Shown here: positions 12,384-62,688 of the stretch, piece after piece
Numbering within the stretch: position 1 is the stretch's first letter
How the letters are laid out: every line of letters begins with the position of its first letter
Virus record (IMG/VR): IMGVR_UViG_3300020112_001619
Source of the DNA: a virus
Reading direction: 5' to 3' (one strand)
Length of the DNA: 64,000 nt
Translations under genes and position numbers: made by a program
Notes under the pieces: generated by a model
Databases searched by the model: none
The model's input: the letters and a program-made list of their open reading frames with translations, nothing else
Told to the model about the DNA's origin: nothing

Positions 12384-12397
12384 GAGGATAATAAATT

Positions 12398-16402: not shown

Positions 16403-16846
16403 ATGTACAAAATGATATATGCAAATAATAAAAAAGTGTATTTCGACTATTTTATTGAAGACAAGTTTGAAGCTGGTATTGCTCTTGTTGGTACAGAAGT
16501 AAAAGGCTTAAAAACAAAAGGCTGCAGTATTAAAGAATCATATATTGATATCGTAAATGGCGAAGCATATATCATTCATATGCATATTGCTCATTATGAA
16601 CAAGGTAATATCTTTAACACTGATCCATTTAGAACTCGTAAATTATTGCTTCATAAACAGGAAATCAATAAACTTTTAGCTAAAACAACTGAAAAAGGCT
16701 ATACAATTGTTCCAACATCTGTTTACGAAATAAATGGTAAAATTAAAATCGAAATAGCGTTAGCTAAAGGTAAACACAATTATGACAAGCGAGCTTCTCT
16801 AAAAGAAAAAACAATTAAAAGAGAAATCGAAAAAGAGAGGTATTAA
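16403..16846 (+). CDS. smpB: SsrA-binding protein SmpB
   Basis: Near-canonical SmpB: AGIALVGTEVKGLK, IAHYEQGNIFNTDPFRTRKLLLHKQEINKL, YTIVPTSVY, KIEIALAKGKHNYDKR. Length 147 aa. Confidence 0.9.
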   Translation: MYKMIYANNKKVYFDYFIEDKFEAGIALVGTEVKGLKTKGCSIKESYIDIVNGEAYIIHMHIAHYEQGNIFNTDPFRTRKLLLHKQEINKLLAKTTEKGYTIVPTSVYEINGKIKIEIALAKGKHNYDKRASLKEKTIKREIEKERY

Positions 16847-19365: not shown

Positions 19366-19375
19366 GAGAAATCTT

Positions 19376-20530
19376 ATGAATACAACAACGAAAAATAAGA
19401 CAAAACAAACTAAAAATACATCATTGATTGATGATCCATTAGATTCTTCTATTTCATCATCTGATACATTAGATGAAGAACCTGAAGATGCAGACGTTGA
19501 ACCAGATATGGCTGATCTTGAAAGTATTGACGATTCACCTGATGCAGAGGCAGATGTTGCAAATTTAATAGCTTTATATGAAGCAAGCGACAAAGCATTA
19601 GATCCAGTAACACAATACTTAAGAGAAATTGGTACAATACCTCTTCTTTCAAAAGAAGATGAACAAATTTTAGGTAAACAAATAAGTGATCTAAAAGATG
19701 CAATTGCCGAACGTGATGAAATTTTAGAAAAACCTAAATTAACAAAAAAAGATGAAAAGAGATTAGAAAAGTTAAAAGTAACAATTTCAGAATGCACAAT
19801 TGCTAAAAACAAATTATGCGAATCAAATCTGAAATTAGTTGTTAGTATCGCAAAACGATATAATTTCAGATCGTTATCTGAATTTCTAGACATCATACAA
19901 GAAGGTAATTTAGGTCTTATCAAAGCAAGTGAAAAATTTGACTATACAAGAGGATTCAAATTTAGTACATATGCAACCTGGTGGATAAGACAAAGCATCA
20001 CAAGATCTATGGCTGAAACAGGAAGACTTATCAGATTACCTGTTCATATATCTGAAGATATCAATAGAATCAAAAGAGCGAAACGCAATATATTAGCCAA
20101 GACTAATAAAGAAGCTACAATTGAAGATATTGCAGCAGAAGTCAATTTACCTATTGATAAAGTAAAAGACCTTATTAGACTTGAACAGGAACCTATGTCA
20201 CTAAATATGACCGTAGGTGAAGACAATGATTCTACAGTAGGCGATTTTATACCTGATGATACATTGCAAACACCTGAAGAAAAAATGGCAGAACAAAATA
20301 TTCATGATGTGTTATTTGATGTATTCAAACAAGCAAAATTATCAGATAAAGAAATTGACATTATTTGTAGAAGAAACGGTATCGACCGACCTGATAAACA
20401 AACACTTGAAGAAATTGGCAAAGATTATAATATCACCAGAGAACGAGTGCGACAAATAGAAGCCAAAGTCGTTAAAAAATTGAGACATCCAAAATATGCA
20501 AAAATATTAAAAGAATTACTTGAACCGTAA
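19376..20530 (+). CDS. RNA polymerase sigma-70 family factor (primary-like, regions 1.2-4)
   Basis: Region 1.2 YLREIGTIPLLSKEDE. Region 2 DIIQEGNLGLIKASEKFDYTRGFKFSTYATWWIRQSI. Region 4.2 TLEEIGKDYNITRERVRQIEAKVVKKLRHP. ATG at 19376 with AGGAGA ribosome-binding site (ORF track start 19319 rejected). Confidence 0.85.
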   Translation: MNTTTKNKTKQTKNTSLIDDPLDSSISSSDTLDEEPEDADVEPDMADLESIDDSPDAEADVANLIALYEASDKALDPVTQYLREIGTIPLLSKEDEQILGKQISDLKDAIAERDEILEKPKLTKKDEKRLEKLKVTISECTIAKNKLCESNLKLVVSIAKRYNFRSLSEFLDIIQEGNLGLIKASEKFDYTRGFKFSTYATWWIRQSITRSMAETGRLIRLPVHISEDINRIKRAKRNILAKTNKEATIEDIAAEVNLPIDKVKDLIRLEQEPMSLNMTVGEDNDSTVGDFIPDDTLQTPEEKMAEQNIHDVLFDVFKQAKLSDKEIDIICRRNGIDRPDKQTLEEIGKDYNITRERVRQIEAKVVKKLRHPKYAKILKELLEP

Positions 20531-22762: not shown

Positions 22763-23905
22763 ATGACACCACATACAGCAAAACAACATGAAGACCATTT
22801 AGGTAATGTATATCCATCTTTTGCAGACATGTGTAAAGCATATAATAAACCTAGCAATACTGTAAGAAACAGACTTGATAGAAATTGGACATTAGAGCAA
22901 GCATTAACAATTGATAATAAAAATACAGCTGTTAAAGTTAAACCTATCAAAATATGGACTGATCATTTAGGTAATGAATTTCCAAGTGTTCGAGCTATGG
23001 CTGAACATTATGGGATTACTGAAAAAATATTTTGGTCAAGAAAAAGAATACTAAATTGGCCACTAGAAAAAATCTTGACAACACCAATTCAAGATATGGA
23101 CGCTCCGGCAAATGCCATACCAATTGTTTGTAATGGTATTGAATTTAAATCAGTAAATGCATTATGTAAATACTATTGTATACCAAGAACAACTTTTAAA
23201 TTAAGGTTACAACAAGGATATACACCAGATGAAGCCGTAAATATTAAACCGAAAAAAACAAAAGGTTTGGTAAAAACAAAAATAACAGATCCCTGGGGAA
23301 AAGAATTTCCATCTTTGGCTGCATTATGTAAAGAATATCATGTCACTAAAGATTTAGTGAGATCACGATTAGATTTAGGCTGGACTATGGAAAAAATTTT
23401 AACAAATCCTCAAGTCATAGATCCACACAAACCATGTATCGGACCTGACGGAAAACAATACGATGGTTTTAAAATTATGGCAGAATCTTTTGGATTATCT
23501 GAATCAACACTCAGAGGTCGATTAGCTCAAGGATATTCATTAGAAGATGCTATTTATAATTGGGAAAATAACATATTTCATCCTCAAACAGATCATCTTG
23601 GGAATAAATTTAATGCTACAGCTGATATGATGCTTTACTGGAATATTTCAAATAGTTCATATTGGGCTTATATGAAAAGACGAAATATTGTAAATCCAAC
23701 AGATAAAGATAAAGCAAAAGTATTAGACGTTATCAAGCCAAAAAAGAAATTTGCAGATATTACAATTGTAAAAAAAGTTGCAAAAAATTATTATGAGATA
23801 TGTAAAGATAATAAAAATTATATTTGGTCACATGACCAAATATGGAATTATTATCGAAGCACTATCAATATAGTATTTGAGAAAGGAGACTTATGCAATA
23901 CGTAA
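22763..23905 (+). CDS. tandem helix-turn-helix-like (NUMOD1-like) repeat protein, paralog 4 (about 7 repeats)
   Basis: Repeats DHLGNxxPSxxxMCKxYxxxxxTxxxRLxxxWTLEQALT. C-terminal NYIWSHDQIWNYY is related to the 17542 paralog. Confidence 0.6.
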   Translation: MTPHTAKQHEDHLGNVYPSFADMCKAYNKPSNTVRNRLDRNWTLEQALTIDNKNTAVKVKPIKIWTDHLGNEFPSVRAMAEHYGITEKIFWSRKRILNWPLEKILTTPIQDMDAPANAIPIVCNGIEFKSVNALCKYYCIPRTTFKLRLQQGYTPDEAVNIKPKKTKGLVKTKITDPWGKEFPSLAALCKEYHVTKDLVRSRLDLGWTMEKILTNPQVIDPHKPCIGPDGKQYDGFKIMAESFGLSESTLRGRLAQGYSLEDAIYNWENNIFHPQTDHLGNKFNATADMMLYWNISNSSYWAYMKRRNIVNPTDKDKAKVLDVIKPKKKFADITIVKKVAKNYYEICKDNKNYIWSHDQIWNYYRSTINIVFEKGDLCNT

Positions 23906-28037: not shown

Positions 28038-29417
28038 ATGATTGAACCATTAGCTTCTATGATGCGACCACAAACTTTAGACGAAGTATTTGGTCAAGAA
28101 CACATTTTATCTTCTGGCAGATTGCTTAGAAGAATGATTGAGGCCGACATATTGTCATCAATTATTTTGTATGGTCCACCAGGTACCGGTAAAACTACAA
28201 TTGCTACAATAATTGCTAACACAACTAATTGTGAATTTGAAGCAATTAATGCAACAACAGCTGGCAAAGCTGATATGGTAAAAATAACGGACAAAGCAAT
28301 CAAAAATCTAAAAGAGAACAATAAACGAACAATTATGTTCATCGATGAAATACATAGATTCAACAAAGCACAGCAGGATTATCTATTACCATTTGTCGAA
28401 AAAGGTATCGTTATTCTCATTGGTGCTACAACCGAAAATCCATATTTTGAAATTAATGGTGCATTGTTATCAAGATCTAAGATTTTTGAATTACATCCAT
28501 TGGACAAATCAGCTATGAGCCAAATTATAGACAGAGCAATTTTGAAACTAAACATAGAAGCAAAAAATATAAATATTGCTTATGATATTGTATTAACACC
28601 AGATGCCAAAGATTTCTTTATCAATATTGCAGATGGTGATGCAAGACAGATTTTAAATGCTCTCGATCTAGCATACCAAACAACTGAATATGATGACGCC
28701 GGTATTATGACGATCAACTTAGAAGTTGCTGAAGAATGTATTCAGAAAAAAATCAAACAATATGATAAAAATGGTGACAACCATTATGATTCTATATCAG
28801 CATATATTGAATCTATCAAACATTCTGAAGTAGACGCAGCACTTTACTATTTGGCAAGAATGCTCGATAGAGGTGAAGATCCGAAATATATAGCACGACA
28901 ATTAATTAAGATTGCATCAAGAGATATTGGAACTGCTGATCCATATGCTTTAACATTATGCGTGAGCACATTTTTAGCAGTAGAACGAGTAGGTATGCCT
29001 GACTGTAAATTCGGTCTTGCTGAAGCCACTGTTTATACATCACTCGTTCCAAAATCTAACACAGTAACATCTGCGTTAGAACTTGCAATGGAAGATGCTT
29101 CAAATCTATCTAACATTGAGATACCAACAACTCTTAAAGATGAATCTTACAAATCAGCATGGAAATTAGGTCACGGTGGCGTATCTGATGTATTTGCATC
29201 ACCTATTAATTACGATGGCTTTGAATGTATGCCTGAAGATTTAGTAGGTAAACGATACTATTATCCAAGTGATTTAGGTAAAGAAATCGACATGAAAAAG
29301 TACAATGATTGGAGATTAAAAGTAAAAGATGCTGTTAATCAATATATCAGCGAACATCCTGAAGATTTAATCCCACAATCACCGAACAGACCGATTAATC
29401 CAAATACACAAAAATAA
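28038..29417 (+). CDS. rarA: RarA/MgsA AAA+ ATPase, copy 2 (diverged paralog of 10329..11609)
   Basis: MRPQTLDEVFGQEHILSSGRLLRRMI...LYGPPGTGKTT, IMFIDEIHRFNKAQQD, and C-terminal YDKNGDNHYDSISAYIESIKHSEVDAALYYLARM. Confidence 0.85.
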   Translation: MIEPLASMMRPQTLDEVFGQEHILSSGRLLRRMIEADILSSIILYGPPGTGKTTIATIIANTTNCEFEAINATTAGKADMVKITDKAIKNLKENNKRTIMFIDEIHRFNKAQQDYLLPFVEKGIVILIGATTENPYFEINGALLSRSKIFELHPLDKSAMSQIIDRAILKLNIEAKNINIAYDIVLTPDAKDFFINIADGDARQILNALDLAYQTTEYDDAGIMTINLEVAEECIQKKIKQYDKNGDNHYDSISAYIESIKHSEVDAALYYLARMLDRGEDPKYIARQLIKIASRDIGTADPYALTLCVSTFLAVERVGMPDCKFGLAEATVYTSLVPKSNTVTSALELAMEDASNLSNIEIPTTLKDESYKSAWKLGHGGVSDVFASPINYDGFECMPEDLVGKRYYYPSDLGKEIDMKKYNDWRLKVKDAVNQYISEHPEDLIPQSPNRPINPNTQK

Positions 29418-32559: not shown

Positions 32560-33543
32560 ATGTACTCAGAAGACGTTAAATTTGCCAGAACAATTATCAA
32601 TATTGTTTGTGGCGTAATTCTTGGACTTTTTGTTATTATCTGCATTGCCAGATGTTTATTTCAGGTAAGGGAAACCGAATCAGTAGTTGTTACAAATTTT
32701 GGTGTACCTAGACTTGTTGAAGAAAAAGGTTTGCAGACAAAGAAACCTTGGGAGAAAAAGACCAGAGTTGATACAACTGTTAAAAGTTTATCTGTTGGAT
32801 ATTATCAGGATCAGGAATCGGGTGAATATCACGAAATTCCTTCTGAATCAATCATGATTACATCTGATTTTAACCTGTTAGATATTGATTTCGATATTCA
32901 GTATCGTGTCAGTGATCCTATTCAGTATTTATATGCATCAGATGATCCTGATACAATTCTTAAAAATATTGCGATGTCAAGCATTAGAAGTGTAGTGTCA
33001 GCATACTCTGTAGATAGCGCTATTACTACAGGTAAATCAGGTATTCAGGCTGCTGTTAAACAGTCAATTATTGATGAACTCAACGAAAGTAACATTGGAA
33101 TTACTCTTGTAGATGCTGTAATCCAGGACGTAGAACCACCTACAGTAGAAGTAAACAATGCATTTAAAGAAGTAGAAACAGCTAAGCAGGGTAAAGAATC
33201 TGCACTCAATGAAGCACGAGCATATCAGAATCAGGAAATTCCTAAGGCTGAAGCTGATGCAGATAAGATTGTTCAGGAAGCTGAGGCTACAAAAGCAGCA
33301 CGTATCAATGAAGCAAATGCTGAAGTTGCTGCACTTAATGCGAAATTTGAAGAATACAAGAGATATCCTCTAATCACTAAGCAGAGAATGTTCTATGAAA
33401 CAATGCAGAAAGTACTTCCATCTGTACGAATCCTTATTGATACAGAAGGAGACGGTGTTTATAAGCATTATAGCTTAAGTGATTTAGAAAAAAATACTCA
33501 GAAAGTAACACCTATTATTGAAACTGACGGAGGCGAACAGTAA
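32560..33543 (+). CDS. SPFH/band-7 protein, HflK-like
   Basis: N-terminal TM, SPFH domain, and Ala/Glu-rich coiled coil (KAEADADKIVQEAEATKAARINEANAEVAALNAKF) typical of HflK. Confidence 0.7.
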   Translation: MYSEDVKFARTIINIVCGVILGLFVIICIARCLFQVRETESVVVTNFGVPRLVEEKGLQTKKPWEKKTRVDTTVKSLSVGYYQDQESGEYHEIPSESIMITSDFNLLDIDFDIQYRVSDPIQYLYASDDPDTILKNIAMSSIRSVVSAYSVDSAITTGKSGIQAAVKQSIIDELNESNIGITLVDAVIQDVEPPTVEVNNAFKEVETAKQGKESALNEARAYQNQEIPKAEADADKIVQEAEATKAARINEANAEVAALNAKFEEYKRYPLITKQRMFYETMQKVLPSVRILIDTEGDGVYKHYSLSDLEKNTQKVTPIIETDGGEQ

Positions 33544-34538
33544 TGTCAAACGAAACAAAAGTTAAATTCAGACTGCCACTTCTGGTATGGATTATTATTA
33601 TCGGTATTATTGGTGCAATCATCTTTTCAATGTGCACATATACAACAAAAGCTGATGAATATGCTGTTAAATATCAATTCGGTAAAATTGTCGATATTGA
33701 AACTGAACCAGGCTTAAAGACAAAGACACCTTTCATTCAGTCAATCAAAAAGATCAAAAAGCCATCTCGTCTTTATGACTTAAGTGCTTCAGAAGTCATT
33801 ACTTCAGATAAGAAGAACATGATTATTGATGCTTTTGTTGTTTGGCAGATTAATGATCCTAAGATTTTCACATCATCACTTAATGCATCTGATACAACAG
33901 CACAGTCTCGACTTGACACAATTGTATTCAATGCAATTAAAACAACAGTCTCTAGTATGACTCAGGACGAAGTAATTGCATCAAGAAATGGTACAAAAGA
34001 TATTGAAGTTGTAGAAACAACACTTGATGATGTAACACTTCAGGAAGCAGCTACTACCGATGAAACAAAAGACGTAAAAATTATTTCTATTTCAGATAAA
34101 TTAATGGCTGCTATTGGTAATCAGTGTGATCAGTATGGTATTAAGGTCACAAATATTGAAATTAAGATTTTGGACCTTCCTGATGAAAATAAAAATGCTG
34201 TATATAATCGAATGATTACTGAAAGAAAGAATATTGCAACAGCATATACAGCTCAGGGTCAGTCTGAAGCTCAGAAGATCAAGAATGATACTGATAAGCA
34301 GACATCAATCATGCGATCAGAAGCTGATGCCACAAAGGCTAAAACAATTGCTGAAGGTGAAGCTGAATACATGAGGATTCTTGCAAGTACATACAATAAT
34401 CCAGAAAAGGCAGATTTCTATCTGTACACAATGGAGCTTGATACATTGAGAGAATCACTATTAAAAAATCCATATGACAATGTTCTTATTATTGATAAGA
34501 ATAGTCCATTTGCTTCATTGTTTAATGGTATTGAATAA
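33543..34538 (+). CDS. SPFH/band-7 protein, HflC-like
   Basis: N-terminal TM, SPFH domain and coiled coil. Translationally coupled to the upstream HflK-like gene (ATG overlaps its TAA). Confidence 0.7.
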   Translation: MSNETKVKFRLPLLVWIIIIGIIGAIIFSMCTYTTKADEYAVKYQFGKIVDIETEPGLKTKTPFIQSIKKIKKPSRLYDLSASEVITSDKKNMIIDAFVVWQINDPKIFTSSLNASDTTAQSRLDTIVFNAIKTTVSSMTQDEVIASRNGTKDIEVVETTLDDVTLQEAATTDETKDVKIISISDKLMAAIGNQCDQYGIKVTNIEIKILDLPDENKNAVYNRMITERKNIATAYTAQGQSEAQKIKNDTDKQTSIMRSEADATKAKTIAEGEAEYMRILASTYNNPEKADFYLYTMELDTLRESLLKNPYDNVLIIDKNSPFASLFNGIE

Positions 34539-35850: not shown

Positions 35851-35973
35851 TCCATAAATCCAAAAATAAATAATCATTTATAATGGGCATAAACAATGAG
35901 TTTATGTCCATCAATAAGTGATTATTCACTTATATTCAAATATCAAAACCTAAACAAAAAGGAGAAACAGCTT

Positions 35974-37206
35974 ATGTGTATTATTTGTGGTAACAACACA
36001 AAAAATGACTTAAACATTAAAACATATCAGGGAGAAGTATTTAGTATTTGTCCTAGTTGCTTTGAAGGTATTTTAAGACAGCTTACAAAATCAAATATGA
36101 TCGGAATCCCTGTTTATGCTTCTGGTGATGAGGACGATGATTACGAAGATTTCTACTATGAAACAGACGAAGATTTTAAGAATGCACTTAAAAAGCTTAC
36201 TCCAAAGCAGATTAAGGCAATTTTAGATCAGTATGTTATTGGACAGGAAGATGCAAAAACTGTCGTATCTGTAGCAATCTATAATCACTACAAAAGAATC
36301 ATTCATGATAGAACAGATATTCAGAAGTCAAATATCTTAATGGTAGGACCAACTGGCGTAGGTAAGACTGAAATTGCCAGAACTATCGCAAAGATTTTAG
36401 ATGTACCATTCGTAATTGCAGATGCTACTACATTGACAGAAGCAGGTTACGTCGGTGATGATGTTGAAAACATCCTATTAAAGCTTCTTCAGGCCGCCGA
36501 TTTCGATACAGAAGCTGCTGAGCATGGTATCATCTACATAGACGAAATTGATAAAATCGCTCGTAAAGGTGAAAACGTATCAATCACTAGAGATGTATCT
36601 GGTGAAGGTGTACAGCAGGCACTACTTAAACTTATTGAAGGTGCAAAAGTAAACGTGCCAACTCATGCTGGTAGAAAGCATCCTAGAGAAGAATGTGTCG
36701 AGATCGATACATCAAATATCTTATTTATTTGTGGTGGTGCATTTGAATCACTTACAATGGATAAAACAAAACATAATTCTTTAGGTTTTGTGACACCTGA
36801 ATCTGAAGACAAAAAGAAAAAGATCGATGCTAAAGATCTTATGAAACAGGGGCTTATTCCTGAACTTATCGGAAGATTACCTATTGTCGTAAAACTTGAT
36901 GAGTTATCAGAAAATGACTTAAAGCGTATCTTAGTTGAGCCAAAAAATAGCATCTTAAAGCAGTACACTCAGCTCATTGAACTTGATGATGTAAAGCTTA
37001 CAGTTGATGATTCAGCAATTGATTTTATTGCTAATAAGGCATACACAAATGAAACTGGTGCCAGAGGTTTAAAAGCTATCATGGAAGACTTCATGACTGA
37101 AATCATGTTTGAGATTCCAGATGACATGACCGTTGGTGAAATCATTTTAACAGCCAATGAAGATAACACAGAACTTACTTATAAGAGAATTGAAAGAGTA
37201 GCTTAA
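35974..37206 (+). CDS. clpX: ATP-dependent Clp protease ATP-binding subunit ClpX
   Basis: N-terminal C4 zinc finger (CIICGN...CPSCF), Walker [25 protein letters not shown] motif. ATG at 35974 with GGAG ribosome-binding site (track start 35896 rejected). Confidence 0.9.
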
Positions 37207-38221: not shown

Positions 38222-38265
38222 AATCAGCTTTGTTTATCAACGCTGATTAAATGTTTCTTTTTATT
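38222..38265 (+). terminator. rho-independent terminator
   Basis: AATCAGC-(13 nt)-GCTGATT followed by AAATGTTTCTTTTTATT. Confidence 0.65.
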
Positions 38266-38596
38266 AGTGTGGATGGCAGACCGCTATATCTTGTATGGCC
38301 ATCATCGGAGTTTTTCGTATGCTAACTACATTGGTGTTTTTCTCCGACTCATATCGTACAAGACACTTTAATGTAACATCTCCTGCGACAGTGGCAGCAT
38401 ATTAGGAGTGAGAGATTACAGATATGCTTCCTTTCTAAAAAAATTCATAAAACATAAATACATTTTATTAAAAATCATGTGCAATTAGTCCAAAATAATA
38501 AAAACATATTGTTGTATAGCCTAACATGTGTTATTGTATGAATATACACAACGTATATATTATATATAACAAAATTAAGAAGGAAGGTTTATACAA

Positions 38597-39208
38597 ATGT
38601 TAAGTGGACTTAAAAGCTATGACAAACTACAAGCTATGGTTGGTAAAAAAGAGACAAAAGCTAAATCAGTATCAATCATAGAATCAAAAACAAACGCCTT
38701 AATCAGAGCAATGGAACAAGATAACTTCCAATACTTTGATGGCGATCCAGAAAACGCAAGAATTGCCTTAAATACTTGTTATGACACAATTCGTGAGCAT
38801 GCTCAATCATTATCAAAAAGAAATGATAGAAGTAATGTCAATGAATCATTCAAAGAAGTATATCAAAGAACAGGAAACTCTGAAGGATTAGGAAATATCC
38901 AAACAGAAGAATCATCAGTAGAATCAAACATTGCAGAATCAAGAGTATATGCAAAAAACGCATTACAAAATTTAAACGCAATGTGTCGCCACTACAATAT
39001 TCCTGAATTTATGACGCAGGCTAATATGCAAAAAGGTGAAAATATTGATCAATTTGCAATTGCCTTCAATCAGAGGTATACTGATATTGAGAAGAGTGAC
39101 GAATTGTTCAAAGCATTTATGCAAGGTGGTAATACTAGAACACCTGAACTGTCAACCTCTGAATATCAGAATAATTATGATCAATCACCGAGAGGACCCG
39201 AAATATAA
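38597..39208 (+). CDS. hypothetical protein
   Basis: ORF with GAAGGAAGG ribosome-binding site. Confidence 0.45.
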   Translation: MLSGLKSYDKLQAMVGKKETKAKSVSIIESKTNALIRAMEQDNFQYFDGDPENARIALNTCYDTIREHAQSLSKRNDRSNVNESFKEVYQRTGNSEGLGNIQTEESSVESNIAESRVYAKNALQNLNAMCRHYNIPEFMTQANMQKGENIDQFAIAFNQRYTDIEKSDELFKAFMQGGNTRTPELSTSEYQNNYDQSPRGPEI

Positions 39209-39553
39209 ATGAATCCTGCGATCAGAAAAACAAACAATGCCGATAAAAGCTTATCGATAATAATTGAAAATGATTATTATAAAATAAGTGTTGTATATAC
39301 AGGTAATTATGATGATGATTTAAAAAACAATATGATTAATCAAGACAATATTGGTGTGTATATTATCCCATTTGATAAAAACTATCCTAAAATAAGATGT
39401 GTATATACAAATGTTGATAAACCAATTGATAAAATCATTACAGAAGGGTGTGTAGGCCCTGATACCGTAAATGCAATACATGCAGCTCAGGAAATGTTAA
39501 CATGTACAAAAACAATTATGAAACAATATTTTCCTGATATCTGGACAAATTAA
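39209..39553 (+). CDS. hypothetical protein
   Basis: ATG immediately follows the upstream stop. Confidence 0.4.
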   Translation: MNPAIRKTNNADKSLSIIIENDYYKISVVYTGNYDDDLKNNMINQDNIGVYIIPFDKNYPKIRCVYTNVDKPIDKIITEGCVGPDTVNAIHAAQEMLTCTKTIMKQYFPDIWTN

Positions 39554-39750
39554 AAAAAATCATAAGAGAGGTAACACATTATGGAAAAAATTTGGGGATA
39601 ACTATTATTAACTTAAATTAAAAAAATCATAAGAAAGGTATTACATTATGGAAAAAATTTGGGGATAACTATTATTAACTTAAATTAAAAAAATCATAAG
39701 AAAGGTATTACATTATGGAAGAAATTTGGGGCTAATTATTATTAACTTAA
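39549..39750 (+). repeat. three tandem direct repeats of 67-68 bp abutting the 5' end of the tmRNA gene
   Basis: Copies at 39549-39616, 39617-39683 and 39684-39750. Copy 2 is ATTAAAAAAATCATAAGAAAGGTATTACATTATGGAAAAAATTTGGGGATAACTATTATTAACTTAA. Each holds a Shine-Dalgarno-like GAAAGG plus the mini-ORF ATG GAA (A/G)AA ATT TGG GG(A/C) TAA. Confidence 0.9.
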
Positions 39751-40124
39751 GGGCTTGCAAAGGTTTCGACTGGGTATTATAAGTATCTCAAGCATGTAGA
39801 GGATGATGGACACCTCTTAAATCCGACATCAAAGAATAATCGCTAACGATTATGAAGAGCTCTGCGCAGCCTAGTAGCGCCAGCTAGTGTAAACTAGCCG
39901 TCAACTCATATGAGTATCACCGCTGTATCTCATATGGGCAATAGTAGCGGTTAAGCGATGAGTGAACTGAGATGGAACTCACCGACGAAAACTCCGGCGT
40001 CTTAGTGTGTGTATAGAAGCGTGTTGGTTTGCTAATTACAGGCACTATAAAGGGATAACCAAATAAACATGTAGAAAAAGATATGGAGATATTTAGGACA
40101 GGGGTTCGACTCCCCTCAGGTCCA
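39751..40124 (+). ncRNA. ssrA: tmRNA (SsrA), standard one-piece form; predicted tag peptide ANDYEELCAA
   Basis: 5' GGGCUUG-CAAAG-GUUUCGACUGGG matches the tmRNA 5' consensus. The 3' T-arm AGGGGTTCGACTCCCCT plus CAGGTCC pairs 7/7 with the 5' GGGCTTG (two G-U pairs). Tag reading frame is GCT AAC GAT TAT GAA GAG CTC TGC GCA GCC TAG TAG at 39842-39877, preceded by AATAATC as in the E. coli AAUAGUC resume context. Confidence 0.8.
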
Positions 40125-40216
40125 CTAGCCAAAGTAATTTGGTGAACAATTTTATAAAGTCCATAAGGTCTTTATAGATACTTATGGCATATCCCCCCCC
40201 AATAGAGACAAATATT

Positions 40217-40252
40217 GAAACTATCGTGCGTTAAAACATGATAGTTTTTTTA
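40217..40252 (+). terminator. rho-independent terminator downstream of tmRNA
   Basis: GAAACTATC-(loop)-GATAGTTT followed by TTTTTTATTT. Preceded by hairpin CCATAAG...CTTATGG and a C8 tract at 40193-40200. Confidence 0.7.
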
Positions 40253-40297
40253 TTTGCCTTCTATTAACAATTGTTTTCAAAGAAAAGGAAATGAAAA

Positions 40298-40477
40298 ATG
40301 GAAAGAAATGTTTACATCGCCAGAATTATTGGATGTCTTATTGCAATCATATTTATTGTCAGTGCAAGATTTAGAGTAGATTGTGATTTAACATCTATAA
40401 CAATCACTATTACAAATATATCATTGCTATTGATATTGCATTCAATTGGCGGATTAATGAAATACCATTCTCTTTAA
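40298..40477 (+). CDS. small membrane protein (59 aa; not in ORF track)
   Basis: AAGGA ribosome-binding site then ATG at 40298. Hydrophobic IARIIGCLIAIIFIVSA and ITITNISLLLILHSIGGL. Confidence 0.3.
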   Translation: MERNVYIARIIGCLIAIIFIVSARFRVDCDLTSITITITNISLLLILHSIGGLMKYHSL

Positions 40478-40495
40478 TTTTTTTATGTTAAAATA

Positions 40496-40524
40496 TTGAA
40501 TAATCTACAATTATGTAGTACAAT
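40496..40524 (+). promoter_or_regulatory. near-consensus sigma-70 promoter (TTGAAT-17-TACAAT) driving the tRNA-like RNA block
   Basis: TTGAAT at 40496-40501, exactly 17-nt spacer, TACAAT at 40519-40524. Next terminator is at 40898-40933. Confidence 0.6.
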
Positions 40525-40624
40525 GATTAAGCGATAAACTATTCATGTTGAGGCGGCCGGTACACTTATGTGCCAATAACAAATTGTAATAATAAAAATT
40601 ACGCCGGACGCTGACTACATTTTA

Positions 40625-40693
40625 CTCTTAAATGCTTAAAAGGTAAGCACATATTACATGATATGTAAGTCGGTTCGACTCCTACTTAAGAGT
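40625..40693 (+). tRNA. tRNA-like element (candidate anticodon CAT) with non-canonical anticodon loop
   Basis: Acceptor CTCTTAA/TTAAGAG pairs 7/7. D-arm GCTT-AAAAGGT-AAGC. T-arm GTCGG-TTCGACT-CCTAC. Anticodon helix ACATAT/ATATGT has only a 6-nt loop TACATG and a 2-3-nt variable region, so function as a tRNA is uncertain. Confidence 0.35.
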
Positions 40694-40810
40694 TTCGAGT
40701 TTGATAAATTAAAAATTGCAAATTGCTCCCCCTTTTACTTTTTATGATTTATTAAATTCGACACACGATTATACCCAGGTCGTGGATTAAATTTTTCAGT
40801 TACTAAAAAG

Positions 40811-40871
40811 GCCGGGTGGTGCTTGTGGGGTGCATACCCACATGAGAGGGGTTCGACTCCCCTAACCCGAA
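40811..40871 (+). ncRNA. D-armless tRNA-like or tmRNA-3'-like element carrying the identical T-arm of the tmRNA
   Basis: AGGGGTTCGACTCCCCT is identical to the tmRNA T-arm. Hairpin TGTGGG-GTGCATA-CCCACA has an anticodon-loop-like GCA. There is only a 5-bp acceptor-like helix CGGGT/ACCCG and no D-arm. Confidence 0.3.
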
Positions 40872-40897
40872 AGGGTGGATATTTTTGATTGAAAAAA

Positions 40898-40933
40898 GGT
40901 GATATGTAGTTACTACATATGTACCTTTTTTTT
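40898..40933 (+). terminator. strong rho-independent terminator
   Basis: GGTGATATGTAG-TTA-CTACATATGTACC followed by TTTTTTTT. Confidence 0.75.
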
Positions 40934-40972
40934 AGCATATAAAGCATTTTTCAAGAAAGGATAATGTCATAA

Positions 40973-43024
40973 ATGGATCCAAATACTAATCATGACGATG
41001 AACTATTAGCATCGTTAACAAAAAGAATTTATCATTTAGAACAGGAAGTTATCAAACTAGGTGGATCACCATATGTTGAAACTGTTGAAAAACCAAAACC
41101 AGAAATAAACAATACTGTTCAAATGCAAAATACACCATATGTTCCAAAACCTGAACCTGTATTAGAAAATATGGTATATGCACAACCAAAACCACAAAAT
41201 ATAACAACACCTAAAACTTCTGTTAAAAAGAATCAGAATATTGAAAATAAAATTGGTAAAAATCTGATGGCAATTATGGCATCAGTTCTTATATTCATAA
41301 GCTTAATACTATTTGGTAGCATCGCATTTATGTATCTATCAAACTTTGCAAAAGCAGGAATTATGTATTTAATCAGTATAGCAATCGCTATATTTGGTAT
41401 TAAAAAGTCACCAAAACGAAATGCTTTACCTGATAAGCAATATAAATACAAAACATTCTATACGTCATTGGCTGCATGCGGTATTGGTGCAACTTATATA
41501 TCAAGTTTAATATCATATTTCATATTTAATATATTTAACTTACCATTATTTATTATTGCAATTATAGCCTGGCTTGTTGCAACAATGATACTTGCTTATA
41601 ATTATTCAAATATTTTTGTATATATTTGCAATATCGGTTTGATCATAGCCACATTATTAATAACTTTCCAATTTGGAAACAGCTTATTCGGATTCATTAT
41701 TTATACAATATGTTTAGTTGCATTGTATATTATAAGACATAGCGATAATTTCAACAAAGATTGTTTTTATTTCATGCAATATCCAATCATGTTCATAATT
41801 TTAACAGCAATCTCTAATGGCTTTATATCATATATCATAATTGCATTTATCACTATTGGTGTATTTATTGCAGCCAATATAATCTATGATATGCAGCCTA
41901 AACACATAACAACAAATATATTAACATTAATACTGAACACTTTTGCAATTATATATTTTGTATCATCTAAAAACACAAAAGTATTTGATACAAAAGAACT
42001 ATTCATATACATTAGTATTATTATGGCAATCACCATAAGTATTGTGTACTATATGAGATATAAAAATAAAATCAAAGCATTACAGTATACAGCTTACGTA
42101 ATTATGTTAGTAATCTCATTAGCCACATTCGCTTCAACAACTGTTTATGATTATGTTGGATTCTTTCCATTTGCAATCCTTATGTTCTTAGGATTCATAA
42201 CAAAAGATGTATATTTAAGAATTGGTGGATATGCTTCATTATTCTTAACATTAAATGCCAGCATATTAAACGAAAACGAATATGCCTTCTATATGGTATG
42301 TATTATGTTTTTAATAGCAGCATATGTACTATCAGTTATCACTAATTACACTTGTGCAGATAAATATGCAATAACAGGGATATTCTTAATTGCAACACTA
42401 TCATTCTTAAATGAAATTGATTGTTCATATATTATAACATTTAGTATATTTGCAATAATTTCAATGATTATGAATACCAAATGGTATCATATGAATTACG
42501 AAACACATAAAGAAGAAATAGCATCAAAAATTATTGGATATGTGTTAAATAGTATATTAATGTTAACAGGTCTTATTGGCATAATTGCTGAAGGATTAAC
42601 ACCATCAATTATCGAACTTTCTATTGTAACGTTGATAACTGTTGTATTATACTGTATTAATACAAAAAGATTATTCAATCTTACATTACCTGAAATGCTC
42701 ATAGGTATATACATATGTTTAAAATTTACGATCCTAATATTAGCAATCTTAATAAGATTTGAAGCAGCATCATTTGTAATTTCAATTGTAGGAATATTAA
42801 TAGCGATTGTATGTATCATATTAGGTTTCAAAGTGAAACATAAATCATTTCGATTATACGGCCTCATTGTATCATTAATATCAGTGGCAAAACTGATGTT
42901 ATTTGATATTCAATATAGTTCAACATTACTTAGACCTGTTGGATTTTTCATTGCTGGAATTCTATGTTTCGCTATCAGTTTTACATATTCAAAACTAGAA
43001 AAGCAATCGAATAAAGGAGACTAA
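40973..43024 (+). CDS. large polytopic membrane protein (about 20 TM helices; DUF2339-like architecture)
   Basis: About 110-aa soluble N-terminus with coiled-coil-like segment, then continuous hydrophobic helices along 570 aa. Confidence 0.5.
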   Translation: MDPNTNHDDELLASLTKRIYHLEQEVIKLGGSPYVETVEKPKPEINNTVQMQNTPYVPKPEPVLENMVYAQPKPQNITTPKTSVKKNQNIENKIGKNLMAIMASVLIFISLILFGSIAFMYLSNFAKAGIMYLISIAIAIFGIKKSPKRNALPDKQYKYKTFYTSLAACGIGATYISSLISYFIFNIFNLPLFIIAIIAWLVATMILAYNYSNIFVYICNIGLIIATLLITFQFGNSLFGFIIYTICLVALYIIRHSDNFNKDCFYFMQYPIMFIILTAISNGFISYIIIAFITIGVFIAANIIYDMQPKHITTNILTLILNTFAIIYFVSSKNTKVFDTKELFIYISIIMAITISIVYYMRYKNKIKALQYTAYVIMLVISLATFASTTVYDYVGFFPFAILMFLGFITKDVYLRIGGYASLFLTLNASILNENEYAFYMVCIMFLIAAYVLSVITNYTCADKYAITGIFLIATLSFLNEIDCSYIITFSIFAIISMIMNTKWYHMNYETHKEEIASKIIGYVLNSILMLTGLIGIIAEGLTPSIIELSIVTLITVVLYCINTKRLFNLTLPEMLIGIYICLKFTILILAILIRFEAASFVISIVGILIAIVCIILGFKVKHKSFRLYGLIVSLISVAKLMLFDIQYSSTLLRPVGFFIAGILCFAISFTYSKLEKQSNKGD

Positions 43025-43033
43025 TAATCAACT

Positions 43034-43597
43034 ATGGGACAAAAACAACATCATAAATATAAGATAAAAATTCCACATATAAATACAAAAATCAAAGTGA
43101 AAAAATCATCAATGATGATATTTTCATATGTATCACACACAATTGTTAACTTTTTTGCAAATTATGGATATTTGATATTAAGTGTTGCAATAGCATACAT
43201 CATTTTTAAATATTCAAATCAACCAGCAACTGAATCAGCAAATGCGAGTCATAAAGCATACGCAATATTATCTCAGTTACCTTTAGCGAAAGCAATATTT
43301 AATGTGATACCGATAAGAAAATGTGCTCATATGTTTTTGTATTGTATATTAAGTCTAACAGTATTTATGCATTTTAGATTCAAATCTGAAATACCTCATA
43401 TATGGGCTTTACTATCTTGCTTTATATATGCTTGCACTGATGAATTTCATCAATTATTTGTACCTGGTCGAGGAGCAGTAATATCCGACATAGGCTTTGA
43501 CTGTATAGAAGCCTTCATCGGAATCATAACAACATCAATCACATTGCGTTTAATCTATAAATATTTAGAACGTCATGATGATTATATAAATTATTAG
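43034..43597 (+). CDS. VanZ-like membrane protein
   Basis: Four TM helices with ACTDEFHQLFVPGRGAVISDIGFDCIEAFIG resembling the VanZ-family ExxQxFxPGR...D...N/D..G motif. Confidence 0.45.
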   Translation: MGQKQHHKYKIKIPHINTKIKVKKSSMMIFSYVSHTIVNFFANYGYLILSVAIAYIIFKYSNQPATESANASHKAYAILSQLPLAKAIFNVIPIRKCAHMFLYCILSLTVFMHFRFKSEIPHIWALLSCFIYACTDEFHQLFVPGRGAVISDIGFDCIEAFIGIITTSITLRLIYKYLERHDDYINY

Positions 43598-46826: not shown

Positions 46827-49607
46827 ATGAGGATAAAAAAATTAGAACATAATGAAAAAACATATGATGATCTAAGACCATATATTCTAAGAAAAGAAAA
46901 TTGTTGCGTTGTAAATCCTTGTGGTTCAGGAAAAAGCACAATTATAGCTTCCATCATTGAAGAATTTTATGAATTAGGTATTATTGTCATCACAAAACAA
47001 GCAAATGCAAAAGCTTATTATTACGAAAAATGCCCAATATTCGAACAACAGAATATACCAGTTATAACATACAATAGATTACATGATCTATATAAAAAAG
47101 ATAAATTAAAGAGCTTGAAAAACATCAAAATCTGTATTTTTGATGAAGCTCATTATATAGGAGCAAATAGTTGGTATGATTCTGTTACTGAATTATTAAA
47201 AATAACAGAAGCTACAGCAATCGGTGTTACAGCAACACCACAACGATACGAAGATCAAGGATCAGATCGATCAATTATTGATTTCTTTTCAGGTAATTCT
47301 GTAGGAAATTATACAGCAAAAGACCTTCAGAGAAAAGGTGTATTTATTGAGCCTGAGTACATTATTACATTGGCATCACTTGATACTGAAATCAATAAAC
47401 GAATTGATAAACTGAATGAAATAGATGATCTTACGGATAAAGAACGTGAAACTTATATAAGTCGATTAAATGAATTACAGGATAACTGGGCTGAAAAAGA
47501 ATGTCCTAAAGTAGTTATGTCAAAAGTATTAGATGATTACATGTATAGACCAAATGGAAATAAAATACTTGTATTTTCTAAAAATATTGAAGCAATTGCT
47601 AAAGACATGAAATATGTTAAAGATATTCTTGAATCAATATATCCTGACAAAAAGATTGGACTATATGAATACACTCATTTTAGCAGCGAATCTGTCTTAC
47701 AAGAATTTTTAACAAATGATACTAACTATATCAACGTTATATTTTCTGTTAATAAAATCTGTGAAACAATTCATATTCCAGATCTAAACGTACTAATATT
47801 TTTAAGAAGTTCTTATTCAAACAGGATCATTACACAACAGGCTGGCCGAGTTAATGATATTAATAATCCATACAAAAGTTTAATTCTCGATATGGTAGAC
47901 AATTTATCAAAATTTGGCAAAAAGAATAATCTTGATTCATTAGAAAATATTCAGAAAACTGTTAAAAAAGAACAGCAAGAAAATAAAACAACTGTACGAT
48001 TAAATCTATCTTATATGTATGGTTCTATTGGGTTGTTTAATAAAATTGACAGTTTAACAAAAAAATATCAGCTATATGATTATATGGGTGCAACAGGTAC
48101 AATCACTCAGTTATGTACTATTTTCAGAAAAGACAAAGATGAAGTTATGAAACTGATCAAAGATAATCAGTTATCAGTGTATGATGCATTAGACACTGTA
48201 CCTAGTCAAAGAAAATGGTCAAATGATATGTTAAATGATGATTCATATGATTTACTTACAAATATGGATTATACATTAACACCTGAAGATAACGAATTAG
48301 TCGAAAAATTTTACCCATACATTCAAGATATTGCAAAAACAAAAAATTGTACAGATGAAGATATTATTGGAAATGCTGCATTATATCTATGTAATATTGC
48401 ACATAAATACAATACTGAAAACATAACAACAAGTCAAAACATGTATTTCAGAAACAGTATTGCTAATTTCATAGTGAGATCTATGCGAAAAATGTATGAT
48501 CATAATGATATGATAGAAGATTCACTATCAGATGTCGTATCATCTGGCGAGTATGTATCAAAATATGCTGAACTTTCGGAATTAAAAGATATCATATTTG
48601 AATTATTAAATACTTTAACTGAAAAAGAACATCGTGTTATTGCTATGAGATTTAATATCTATGGTAATGGACCACAATCATTATTCAGTGCAGGACGTAT
48701 ACTTGGTGATGTATCTAGAGAACGAATAAGACAAATAGAAGCAAAAGCTATACGAAAATTACGACATCCTAGTAGATCAAGAAAATTAAAAGGTTTCTTA
48801 AATGGCGAAGAATTATCAGAAATTGAACCATATACTTATCTAACATATATAGGATCAGAAAATTTACCTGAAGCAAATGCTGAAGTATTCAGATGGATTA
48901 ATGAACATATCAATATGGCTATTTTGAAATACGGTCCTAATTATAAAGAAGAGTTTACCATCGTTCAAAAATCTGATACAAAATGTGAACCTGTTACAGA
49001 AAAAGAGTCAGTAGAATCTTTAAACAAACGCTTAAATAAAGTAGTTCTTAAAACTGCTGAAAAAAGAGTTGGTATTCGTATTAATAGACCAGTTAAATAC
49101 GACAAAATCACAATAAAAAAGTATCGAGGTGATCAATATCAAATTGGAAAGACACAAGCAATTGACAACATACAGTCTGTTACAACATATGAATACATTG
49201 ACGCTATTGACGCCACAGTTGCTTCAACATTATCAAATCTGCTGAATAACAATGAGAATCCTTTCTGGATTCATGACGCATTATTCAAACCTTTTGAAGA
49301 TGTAAAATATAAACATATCTTACATCCTGCTGTAAAAGAGATTTTAAAACAAAATCAAATAATTTCACCTGCATTCTTAATAACAAAGACAAGAGATGAA
49401 ATTCACGAATTATTAACAGTAGGTGCAAGACTTAAAGCGGCTCAATGCTACAAAGTAGATGCTTTATTATCAGATGATGATATTTGGTTTATGAAAAACT
49501 TCGGTGAAATCATAAAAATATTAGAAGGAAGCGTTGAAACATTAGAAGCAATCAAAAGAGAAGCATTATCACTTTTATATGATCAAAACATCGAAATTGT
49601 TTGTTAG
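46827..49607 (+). CDS. fusion protein: SF2 helicase-like N-terminal domain plus sigma-70 region 2/region 4 domains plus about 290-aa unknown C-terminal extension
   Basis: Helicase motifs [26 protein letters not shown] are paralogous to the 1996 protein. Sigma region 2-like [18 protein letters not shown]...[17 protein letters not shown]. Region 4.2 [53 protein letters not shown] nearly matches the RpoD consensus. Confidence 0.7.
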
Positions 49608-55423: not shown

Positions 55424-56173
55424 ATGATAAAAGATCACGAAGGACATGAATTCGAATCTATAACCGATAAATGTAAAGTGTATAATATATCACGAACGAC
55501 ATATAGAAATCGTATCAAAAAAGGTATGTCAGAAAAAGAAGCATTAACAACACCTGTTAAACGAAAACAACAATCTATAAATTATAACGGTGTTCATTAC
55601 AATAAATTATCAACATTTTTAAAAGCGTACAATTTATCAATGAGTGATTATTATAATGCTAAAAATCTTGGTTGGTCATTAGACGAACTTGTCCATAAAT
55701 CAAAATCATTTGATTGTGTTGACCCATATGGTAACACTTTTAATAATATGCAATCGTTATTAAAGCATTATAATATAAGTAAAAAACAATACTATTATTG
55801 GTTAGATAAAGGTAAAACATTAAAAGAAATAATAGATTTACAGTATTCAAAGCATCATATATGTGATCCATTTAACAATGAATTTGATTCTGTAGACCTT
55901 ATGTACAAATGTTACAATTTACCAAAACACATATATCAATCAAGAAAAGACAGAAATCTACCAATATCTCAAGTATTAGGTATTGTACCAATGCCTTCAA
56001 AATTACATCAAATCAATAATTCTGATTATTACATACTCAAAACCGATGATTACGGTGAAATCATAATACCTTTTGAAACATTAGAGAAATACTATATTTC
56101 AAAATTTGATCAATCAAAACTTGATAAGTCTTATATGATAAATAATAACGAAGAACTTAATAAGATTCAGTAA
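55424..56173 (+). CDS. tandem helix-turn-helix-like (NUMOD1-like) repeat protein, paralog 5 (4 repeats plus C-terminal domain)
   Basis: DHEGHEFESITDKCKVYNISRTTYRNRIKKGMSEKEALT and three further degenerate units. C-terminal GIVPMP...DYYILKTDDYGEI. Confidence 0.55.
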   Translation: MIKDHEGHEFESITDKCKVYNISRTTYRNRIKKGMSEKEALTTPVKRKQQSINYNGVHYNKLSTFLKAYNLSMSDYYNAKNLGWSLDELVHKSKSFDCVDPYGNTFNNMQSLLKHYNISKKQYYYWLDKGKTLKEIIDLQYSKHHICDPFNNEFDSVDLMYKCYNLPKHIYQSRKDRNLPISQVLGIVPMPSKLHQINNSDYYILKTDDYGEIIIPFETLEKYYISKFDQSKLDKSYMINNNEELNKIQ

Positions 56174-62247: not shown

Positions 62248-62688
62248 TTGATAGATTTTTTATCATTGCAAAAATCAAATCCATCTAGTTATAATTCAAC
62301 AAGTGGTAATAATAATTCAAATAATAACAATCAAAATCAAGGATCATATAATTCAAATGGATCATCTGGAAATAATAATTCTAATAATCCATCTAAAAAC
62401 AATGGTTCGAAAAATGCATCTAATGCAATCAATAAACTAAATAATATGATGAATAATTTATTCAATAGTATGAATAATAATTCAAACAATCATAACGCAA
62501 ACAATTCAACAAACACAAATCAAAATAACAATCAAGGACAACAGAATAACAACAATGGTAGTGCTGGAAATCAAAATCAAAATAGCACAAATTGTAACCC
62601 AAATAACAATAGTCCATGTTGTCCTAATTGTATGAATTACAATTGCCCAAAATTCAATAATCGTAATACAGGGTATATTGGACCGTAA
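62248..62688 (+). CDS. Asn-rich low-complexity protein with C-terminal Cys cluster (TTG start)
   Basis: About 55 percent Asn/Ser/Gln, ending CCPNCMNYNCPKF. GAGGG ribosome-binding site. Confidence 0.4.
   Translation: MIDFLSLQKSNPSSYNSTSGNNNSNNNNQNQGSYNSNGSSGNNNSNNPSKNNGSKNASNAINKLNNMMNNLFNSMNNNSNNHNANNSTNTNQNNNQGQQNNNNGSAGNQNQNSTNCNPNNNSPCCPNCMNYNCPKFNNRNTGYIGP

Follow-up and report, generated by a model that had tools for sequence, protein, structure and literature searches.

The stretch of DNA analysed here (64,000 nucleotides from IMG/VR virus record IMGVR_UViG_3300020112_001619, hereafter the window) carries a one-piece transfer-messenger RNA (tmRNA) gene, ssrA, at 39751-40127, as well as genes for SmpB, ClpP and ClpX; all four components lie within 24 kb. 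The initial annotation, made from the letters of the DNA, had described a tmRNA with the predicted tag ANDYEELCAA, and both programs used here recover it. ARAGORN calls a one-piece tmRNA gene at 39751-40125 on the plus strand, with the tag ANDYEELCAA followed by two stops and the coding part at 39842-39877 (tmRNA positions 92-127); it is the sole RNA gene called across the 64-kb window. The Rfam model RF00023 matches 39751-40127 over its full length (model positions 1-374 of 374) with 146.7 bits and an E-value of 1.3e-57, 100 bits above the gathering score of 47 bits, and the window has no other RNA gene at Rfam gathering thresholds. The locus is a real, intact tmRNA gene with the sequence elements of a tmRNA and its structure elements, save for one weakly supported pseudoknot stem. 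These elements are given below, where the sister is the tmRNA of a related contig, L092; PK stands for pseudoknot.

39751-40127, plus strand: one-piece tmRNA (ssrA), from ARAGORN, the full-length RF00023 match and comparison with the sister
39842-39877, plus strand: tag reading frame with the resume codon GCU, ANDYEELCAA and tandem UAG UAG, from ARAGORN, the RF00023 alignment and identity in the sister
39751-39757, plus strand: 5' strand of the acceptor stem, GGGCUUG, pairing with 40117-40123 (CAGGUCC), 7 of 7 pairs in window and sister
40100-40116, plus strand: T-arm AGGGG-TTCGACT-CCCCT, 5 of 5 pairs and the same in both genomes, aligned to the RF00023 T-arm
39798-39831, plus strand: PK1, stem 1 AGAGG/CCUCU (39798-39802 with 39813-39817) and stem 2 UGAUG/CAUCA (39804-39808 with 39827-39831)
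39905-39951, plus strand: PK2, stem 1 of 10 bp (39905-39914 with 39929-39938) and stem 2 of 6 bp (39919-39924 with 39946-39951)
39955-40006, plus strand: PK3, the Rfam hairpin and a second stem of ACUGAGAUG (tmRNA 216-224) with CGUCUUAGU (248-256)

The gene opens with GGGCTTGCAAAGGTTTCGACTGGG, or GGGCUUGCAAAGGUUUCGACUGGG when written as RNA, and the 5' GGGCUUG, the T-arm and the 7-bp acceptor stem of the initial annotation are all present in the sequence. The acceptor stem contains a G3.U70 pair (G3 at 39753, U at 40121), which is the alanine identity pair; pair 5-369 of the same stem differs between the genomes, U.G in the window against C-G in the sister. The discriminator A is at 40124 and the DNA runs on with CTA, so that CCA is encoded only as its first C; the mature tmRNA probably comprises 39751-40124 plus an added CCA. 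AAUAAUC precedes the tag frame, and the resume codon GCU is aligned with GCA of the RF00023 consensus; the resume context AAUAAUC-GCU also aligns with host tmRNAs. The frame reads GCU AAC GAU UAU GAA GAG CUC UGC GCA GCC UAG UAG. Under translation table 11 the window holds 94 plus-strand genes and is 91% coding, with TAA as the stop of 73 genes, TAG of 14 and TGA of 7. The standard genetic code thus applies in this genome and UAG UAG closes the tag, as first read. The same two figures, 91% coding and 14 genes ending in TAG, rule out a recoding of TAG (code 15, as in some megaphages) that would extend the tag.

In the nested Rfam structure 72 of the 86 pairs are canonical. Four pseudoknots had been expected, and both stems form in PK1, PK2 and PK3, while for PK4 it is the hairpin that is supported, its pair 262-288 changing from U-A to C-G between the two genomes. 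Both PK1 stems are fully paired (5/5) in both genomes, with pair 56-79 changing from A-U to G-C, and the PK2 stems keep 10/10 and 6/6 pairs in window and sister. The second stem of PK3 is likewise 9/9 paired in both, and two pairs at the base of its hairpin are lost in the sister.

Two sister contigs, L011 and L092, were reached through SmpB and ClpX homologs. L011 encodes an SmpB of 87% identity in the gene order NrdD-Sir2-MgsA-...-dUTPase-SmpB. L092 encodes a ClpX of 76-79% identity and has the gene order PIF1-MgsA-SPFH-SPFH-ClpP-ClpX-YspA-...-tmRNA, as in the window; its tmRNA lies in the same place, has an identical tag and scores 157.3 bits on RF00023. The alignment of the two tmRNAs needs no gaps and has mismatches at 34 of 377 positions (91% identity). 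Seven pairs (21-345, 38-329, 39-328, 44-320, 56-79, 213-227 and 262-288) are altered on both sides yet still paired, two further pairs have a compatible change on one side, and only two pairs are lost in the sister. An invariant run of 106 nt (tmRNA 86-191, 39836-39941) takes in the resume context, tag, stops, P5 and PK2; with the 34 changes placed at random such a run has P ~3e-4. Identity between window and L092 decreases from the tmRNA (91%) to ClpP (88%), ClpX (76-79%), YspA (69%) and the open reading frame (ORF) adjacent to the tmRNA (52%), and the similarity ends exactly at the tmRNA 3' end. The sister contigs are mosaic relative to the window, with amino acid identities from 31 to 95%. 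As judged from the sequence comparison, the tmRNA is under purifying selection.

Compensatory changes, the invariant run and an identity higher than that of the neighbours together all but rule out a decaying pseudogene or attachment-site remnant. That the locus is a captured or decaying piece of a host ssrA without a function of its own is a notion with some background, in that many temperate phages have ssrA as their integration site and its 3' end in their genomes, a situation reflected by GenBank phage records that have smpB at an edge, and the window has a second copy of the T-arm 747 nt downstream. We nevertheless consider it extremely improbable: the gene is full length and scores far above threshold, its sequence is far from every host tmRNA compared, its conservation in the sister includes compensatory changes, and no integrase was found in the window. 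The downstream T-arm copy (20 nt, 40844-40863), which we had considered as a duplication of the ssrA 3' end left by integration, is part of a separate tRNA-like element and stops before the acceptor 3' strand.

The protein partners of the tmRNA lie upstream on the same strand.

16403-16846, plus strand: smpB, 147 amino acids, PF01668 at E 1.6e-55, NF003843 and TIGR00086
35230-35850, plus strand: clpP, 206 amino acids, NF001368 and alignment to solved ClpP
35974-37206, plus strand: clpX, 410 amino acids from Met27 of an ORF opening at 35896, NF003745; the database gene model also has 410 amino acids (P0122)

SmpB, which the initial annotation had correctly placed 23 kb upstream (22.9 kb from the tmRNA), scores 186.6 bits on NF003843 (cutoff 130) and 175.2 bits on TIGR00086 (cutoff 119.1). 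Its residues 6-145 align with the solved Aquifex SmpB 1p6v, to residue 149 of the latter, including the complete basic C-terminal tail GKHNYDKRASLKEKTIKREIEKE. The clpP and clpX genes are 2.5-4.5 kb upstream of the tmRNA. ClpP scores 314.7 bits on NF001368 (cutoff 249) and 304.6 bits on TIGR00493, just under the cutoff of 308.6; it aligns to solved ClpP with an E-value of 2.7e-81, and the contexts of the catalytic Ser, His and Asp (AASMG, MIHQP and RDNWL) are conserved. ClpX scores 512 bits on NF003745 (cutoff 359) and has the pore-1 loop GYVG, the pore-2 loop SITRDV, the RKH loop and the LGF loop for ClpP docking. Its N-terminus has the pattern CxxC...CxxC as CIIC...CPSC, and Pfam did not report zf-C4_ClpX for it, so that the zinc domain appears to be divergent. 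The closest ClpX relatives outside the sisters are on L263 (ENA ERZ27302292, 147 kb) and L264 (JGI 3300035520, 119 kb), one-strand contigs of mostly orphan genes with a recurring module of DUF2828/DUF7788 (TROVE-like), ClpX, ClpP and a CCA-adding enzyme; the composition of this module suggests a phage cassette for RNA and protein quality control.

The tag retains a terminal Ala-Ala. Ala-Ala-COO- is the main determinant for ClpXP and is read by the ClpX residues Y153/V154, T199/V202 and R228/H230 (Fei et al. 2020, PMC7652416). The co-encoded ClpX has all six of these residues, as judged by motif identity, and the Ala-Ala end of the tag should, as predicted from sequence, serve as a ClpX degron. 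The initial annotation had also raised the idea that tagged proteins are retargeted to the phage's own ClpXP. We found no support for this: an altered ClpX pore was considered as the means and rejected, as the pore-1 (GYVG), pore-2 (ITRDV) and RKH motifs are canonical.

The residue at position -3 is where the tag stands apart. Cys at -3 had been called rare, and of about 60 tags compared, from related Clostridia and from phages in IMG/VR, not one has it, the residue there being Y, F, I, L, M or A; the 16 IMG/VR phage tmRNAs, too, have no tag with Cys at -3. The CAA end is indeed unusual, but the contrast first drawn with a common LAA was overstated, for the Lachnospiraceae use YAA, FAA and IAA. 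The cellular SmpBs closest to that of the window (60-66% identity) come from Lachnospiraceae and 'Eubacterium' metagenome-assembled genomes (MAGs), in which ssrA lies directly downstream of smpB. Their tags are AEDNLAYAA in most cases, and AEDNLAFAA, AEENLAFAA, ANEELAIAA, ANKELAIAA, ANENLAYAA and ADNRELAYAA. Position -3 is therefore already variable (Y, F or I, not Leu) in the likely host lineage. A comparison with the host tag had been proposed, and the window tag differs from the Lachnospiraceae tags and looks akin to two of them, ANEELAIAA and ANKELAIAA. These belong to the loci with the closest SmpBs, L012 and L013, whose tmRNAs have the acceptor arm and 5' leader in common with the window tmRNA.

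These features bear on what the tag is for. Ribosome rescue by tmRNA and SmpB may be real and the tag yet not mainly a ClpXP degron, the Cys at -3 and the acidic DYEE altering or weakening recognition. The tagged fragments would in that case escape degradation, go to another protease or be told apart from host-tagged ones, and the phage ClpXP would serve other phage ends, such as the removal of host regulators. We consider this unlikely. It draws on the absence of Cys at -3 from the tags compared and on the frequent non-canonical tags of phage tmRNAs (ARYQYQMAA, long tags in IMG/VR, and AKLNITNNELQVA in phage G); furthermore, many huge phage-like contigs have ClpX-ClpP and no tmRNA within 10 kb, which implies that phage ClpXP is independent of phage tmRNA. 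On the other hand, the terminal Ala-Ala-COO- that is the main ClpX determinant (PMC7652416) is kept, the six contacting ClpX residues are canonical, and -3 varies in the host lineage anyway.

The nearest cellular SmpB is from Lachnospiraceae, and the acceptor arm and 5' leader are common to the window and L012 and L013; on these similarities, the most likely host would be a Lachnospiraceae-type gut Clostridium. Overall, the window tmRNA is 64-74% identical to those of the nearest cellular lineage. An RNA identity of only this level to the L012/L013 lineage indicates that the gene is not a recent capture.

Other tRNA-like sequences were noted around the tag question. In L092, ARAGORN calls a 94-nt 'tRNA-Cys(GCA)' at 12306-12399 with a long class-II-like variable arm; it has no Rfam tRNA match at E<=1 and is absent from the window. 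A link between the UGC codon of the tag and a special nearby tRNA-Cys was dropped, because the call in the sister is unsupported by Rfam and the segment is deleted in the window. Relaxed ARAGORN runs for extra tRNAs gave only noise. The end of the L092 contig resembles the 5' part of another tRNA.

All 94 ORFs of the window are on one strand, the GC content is ~31% and most ORFs have no family match. Those that can be assigned include genes for nucleotide metabolism (NrdD, NrdG, ThyA, dUTPase, Gmk and a dNMP nucleotidase), genes for replication and recombination (superfamily 2 (SF2) helicases, PIF1, RNase H, a resolvase-like nuclease and two MgsA), SPFH pairs, a protein with a tail-lysozyme domain and several families known only from PHROGs. 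Searches of Pfam, PHROGs and NCBIfam found no capsid, portal, terminase or tail gene among the 94 ORFs; since the window is 64 kb of a 70-kb contig, this absence holds for the window only. Neither the window nor the two sister contigs were found in searches of IMG/VR and GenBank phages. Positions 30-50 kb of the window had no megablast match to GenBank phages. In IMG/VR the exact tag region and a degenerate peptide-level pattern each gave 0 matches. A pattern of the flanks with a free tag was too loose, with 17 matches in IMG/VR and at least 120 in metagenomes, none of them a tmRNA. A pattern of T-arm and acceptor found only unrelated phage tmRNAs. Looking up the window's own SmpB by exact protein identity turned up no recorded contig.

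As an alternative to a phage, the DNA could belong to a megaplasmid, to some other large extrachromosomal element or to part of a bacterial genome that has undergone reduction, with its own ssrA, smpB and clpPX. The 94 ORFs without a virion or packaging gene and the failure to find the contig in IMG/VR fit such an origin, and some large putative plasmids have similar sets of translation genes (Al-Shayeb et al., PMC7162821); with a source contig of 70 kb and no IMG/VR or GenBank phage relatives, a megaplasmid-like element is conceivable. We regard this as quite unlikely all the same. The 64 kb contain no ribosomal or other housekeeping genes and no genes for plasmid replication, partition or conjugation, and a comparison of the tmRNA with 72,556 plasmid records gave no match. 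One-strand coding, mostly orphan genes, PHROG-only families and the tail-lysozyme domain all speak for a phage, as do the closest ClpX relatives, which are found with ClpP on similar one-strand contigs of 119-258 kb that consist mostly of orphan genes. Moreover, smpB and ssrA are adjacent in cells and 23 kb apart here. The window very likely represents that part of a large phage genome which serves metabolism and replication. The phage carrier assumed in the initial annotation accordingly stands as the most likely one, although the missing structural genes leave it unproven.

Several other genes of the window were noted. Five paralogous proteins with multiple helix-turn-helix (HTH) motifs (phrog_1065 / phrog_3377, PVL ORF-50-like) are encoded at 3979-4752, 5439-6383, 17542-19365, 22763-23905 and 55424-56173, the largest having 607 amino acids and five repeats. 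The MgsA/WRNIP-type AAA+ ATPases are duplicated (10329-11609 and 28038-29417), a tandem SPFH/Band-7 pair (32560-33543 and 33543-34538) lies just upstream of ClpP-ClpX, and a Sir2-family protein (8855-9622) adjoins NrdD. At 62248-62688 there is an extremely Asn/Ser-rich low-complexity protein with runs of N and a Cys-rich C-terminus, which overlaps short tandem repeats reported by Tandem Repeats Finder (TRF).

Of all gaps between genes in the window, the one that holds the tmRNA (39554-40972) is the largest; further features in and around it are the following.

39547-39750, plus strand: three tandem 67-bp units abutting the tmRNA 5' end (TRF, 3.0 copies, 94% match)
39581-39601 and 39648-39668, plus strand: mini-ORFs encoding MEKIWG and a stop
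39715-39735, plus strand: mini-ORF encoding MEEIWG and a stop
40217-40255, plus strand: intrinsic-terminator-like hairpin and T-run, a 12-bp stem then TTTATTT, 90 nt past the tmRNA 3' end
about 40627-40697: second, weaker degenerate tRNA-like element
40799-40866, plus strand: degenerate tRNA-like element with the loop GUGCAUA (GCA anticodon-like) and a T-arm that is a 95% copy of the tmRNA T-arm

Each 67-bp unit consists of a Shine-Dalgarno (SD)-like AAGAGAGG or AAGAAAGG, a 9-nt spacer and a mini-ORF of 6 codons, which reads ATG GAA AAA ATT TGG GGA TAA in the first two units and ATG GAA GAA ATT TGG GGC TAA in the third. Real gene starts of this genome, such as that at 46827, have an SD region similar to that of the units. 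The leader of L092 (13760-13878) comprises two units. They share ATGGAARAAATTTGG with those of the window but differ in their SD context (GGAGGA), and the last 35 nt ahead of the tmRNA are the same in L092 and the window. The mini-ORF motif occurs nowhere else in the window; searching IMG/VR with it gave one match (L268), a chance one inside a coding region. Nothing like the repeat was found upstream of 16 other IMG/VR phage tmRNAs, and the fold of the leader is not significant (z = 0.49). Possible readings of the repeat are a leader that is translated, an array of phage-specific promoters and a duplication that is neutral. The repeat is the only element here that might hide something new. One conceivable role is that the array of SD sequences and mini-ORFs is a translated leader tying production or maturation of the tmRNA to the state of translation, for example through ribosome occupancy beside the RNase P site gating the processing, which would complete a self-regulating circuit of tagging and degradation with SmpB, the Cys tag and ClpXP; we give this little credence.

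The window encodes a full-length RpoD-like sigma factor with regions 1.2, 2, 3 and 4 (19319-20530) and a protein of 926 amino acids (46827-49607; phrog_16 + phrog_351) in which an SF2 helicase is fused to sigma-70 region 4. Sigma factors of its own probably redirect transcription, which may explain a tmRNA without a consensus promoter.

Downstream of the tmRNA terminator follows a strongly hydrophobic ORF of 59 amino acids with a plausible ribosome-binding site (40298-40477), and after it come genes for the large membrane proteins DUF2339 (40973-43024) and VanZ-like (43034-43597). The tRNA-like element at 40799-40866 gives 23.1 bits and E 0.19 with Rfam tRNA-Sec, which is sub-threshold, and ARAGORN makes no call; it is probably a decayed tRNA. 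Both tRNA-like modules lie in a segment (40496-40937) that starts with a promoter-like TTGAAT-17-TACAAT (40496-40524) and ends with a 19-bp hairpin and T-run (40892-40937). The segment has no Rfam family above threshold and is possibly an independent RNA unit of ~400 nt. On the upstream side, a search of 5.8 billion proteins with the ORF adjacent to the tmRNA (38597-39208) recovered no homolog other than the ORF itself. Between YspA and ORF 38597, in a gap that is the second largest of the window, there is a conserved non-coding block of ~170 nt (~38255-38425; ~12445-12620 in L092) with ~70% identity and flanks that do not align; it has no Rfam match.

In our view the locus is likely to be a functional one-piece tmRNA gene on a large mobile genome, most likely that of a large or huge phage of Lachnospiraceae-type Clostridia. 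The transcript would be trimmed at its 5' end by host RNase P, completed at the 3' end by addition of the CCA that is not encoded, and charged with alanine by the host alanyl-tRNA synthetase (AlaRS) through G3.U70. The phage SmpB, with its intact C-terminal tail, would bind the tmRNA and, during infection, deliver it to host ribosomes that are stalled, with an empty A site, on broken or non-stop mRNAs. Translation would restart at GCU (39842), add ANDYEELCAA and stop at UAG UAG. The ribosome would be recycled, and the fragment ending in Ala-Ala-COO- would be unfolded and degraded by ClpXP, the phage's own or that of the host. The likely benefit is that translation capacity and amino acid recycling would be kept up during the phage's breakdown of host nucleic acids and its overloading of translation.

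Several points weigh against this. Structural genes are missing from the window and relatives from IMG/VR and the GenBank phages, and the cysteine at -3 has no counterpart in the tags compared. The second stem of PK4 is a weak candidate with 6 of 7 pairs in the sister and was placed without confidence. Ahead of the tmRNA there is no sigma-70-type promoter on the plus strand, and host ssrA genes have textbook -35/-10 promoters where the window has the mini-ORF repeats. As the tag is nucleotide-identical in the sole available relative, conservation of the peptide is inseparable from that of the RNA. Finally, we infer every step beyond the level of the sequence.

The tmRNA and SmpB might alternatively act mainly as a competitor or replacement of the host system, bypassing host tagging or a host or prophage sensor of tmRNA activity, with extra capacity for rescue a secondary matter. 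The distance of the tmRNA from the nearest cellular lineage, its different tag and the supply of a phage SmpB would suit such a role; according to literature that PMC7162821 cites, phages sense the host state through tmRNA activity, and the tmRNA of mycobacteriophage DS6A, which consists of the tRNA-like domain only, could titrate SmpB (PMC4131195). In the window, however, the tRNA-like and mRNA-like domains are both intact and conserved, which favours complete trans-translation over titration, and no sensor or target was identified. We hold this to be very unlikely and retain complete trans-translation by a phage tmRNA as the preferred reading.

All four components of trans-translation and tag proteolysis are together here on one phage-like genome. 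This makes it a convenient candidate for work on the purpose of ribosome rescue by phages, which earlier huge-phage surveys had brought up as a question and no more. With its Cys, the tag would be easy to track by mass spectrometry or thiol chemistry.

Catalogues of phage ssrA genes go back to at least 2014 and include those of Bacillus phage G, the cluster C mycobacteriophages and DS6A (PMC4131195), and huge phages with tmRNAs and SmpB were reported by Al-Shayeb et al. 2020 (PMC7162821). The cultivated phage G (499 kb) encodes a tmRNA and an adjacent ClpP-ClpX, and both are found in its virions (PMC12484599). Like phage G, the window appears to belong to a large phage of a Firmicute host with a one-piece tmRNA, a non-host tag and a clpP-clpX pair. 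The two differ in that the phage G tag AKLNITNNELQVA does not end in AA and SmpB is not mentioned in PMC12484599, whereas the window keeps the Ala-Ala, co-encodes SmpB and has ClpPX within 4.5 kb of the tmRNA; at the blastn level the two tmRNAs are unrelated. The metagenomic huge phages (>200 kb) resemble the window in having SmpB, with or without a tmRNA, among their translation genes. IMG/VR huge phages with SmpB span 157-440 kb, SmpB and a tmRNA (tag ANYGYAAA) are 5 kb apart in the IMG/VR contig L001, and Lak megaphages have SmpB and ClpX. Huge-phage tmRNAs, however, usually lie inside a tRNA array, while the window has no tRNA gene, only tRNA-like remnants, and its SmpB is only 39-54% identical to the huge-phage SmpBs.

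Among cellular systems, the Lachnospiraceae loci L012 and L013 ('Eubacterium' MAGs) are similar in SmpB (65-66% identity), in the acceptor arm GGGCUUG...CAGGUCCAC and in the 5' leader, and their tag family, AN-EEL-x-AA, relates ANEELAIAA to ANDYEELCAA. In Lachnospiraceae, ssrA follows smpB at a distance of ~80-100 nt and is preceded by a canonical promoter; in the window the two genes are 23 kb apart and ssrA has no consensus promoter. The host tags are 9 residues long, and their -3 residue is I, Y or F; the window tag has 10 residues and Cys in that place.

Actinophage tmRNAs have been annotated in cultivated phages, among them cluster C mycobacteriophages (for example Bxz1) and Streptomyces phages (for example Gilson and Forrest). 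In the Streptomyces phage tmRNAs the 31 nt of T-arm and acceptor 3' end are exactly as in the window, with no similarity outside the T-arm. Actinophage tmRNAs differ in their hosts, in tags that end in ALAA (ANSNFALAA) and in having no SmpB or ClpXP reported adjacent. A tmRNA with SmpB and a tmRNA with ClpXP have thus both been published for phages, and the window extends this known pattern. What is particular to it is the presence of the four components within 24 kb, the Cys-containing tag and a tmRNA with no surrounding tRNA array.

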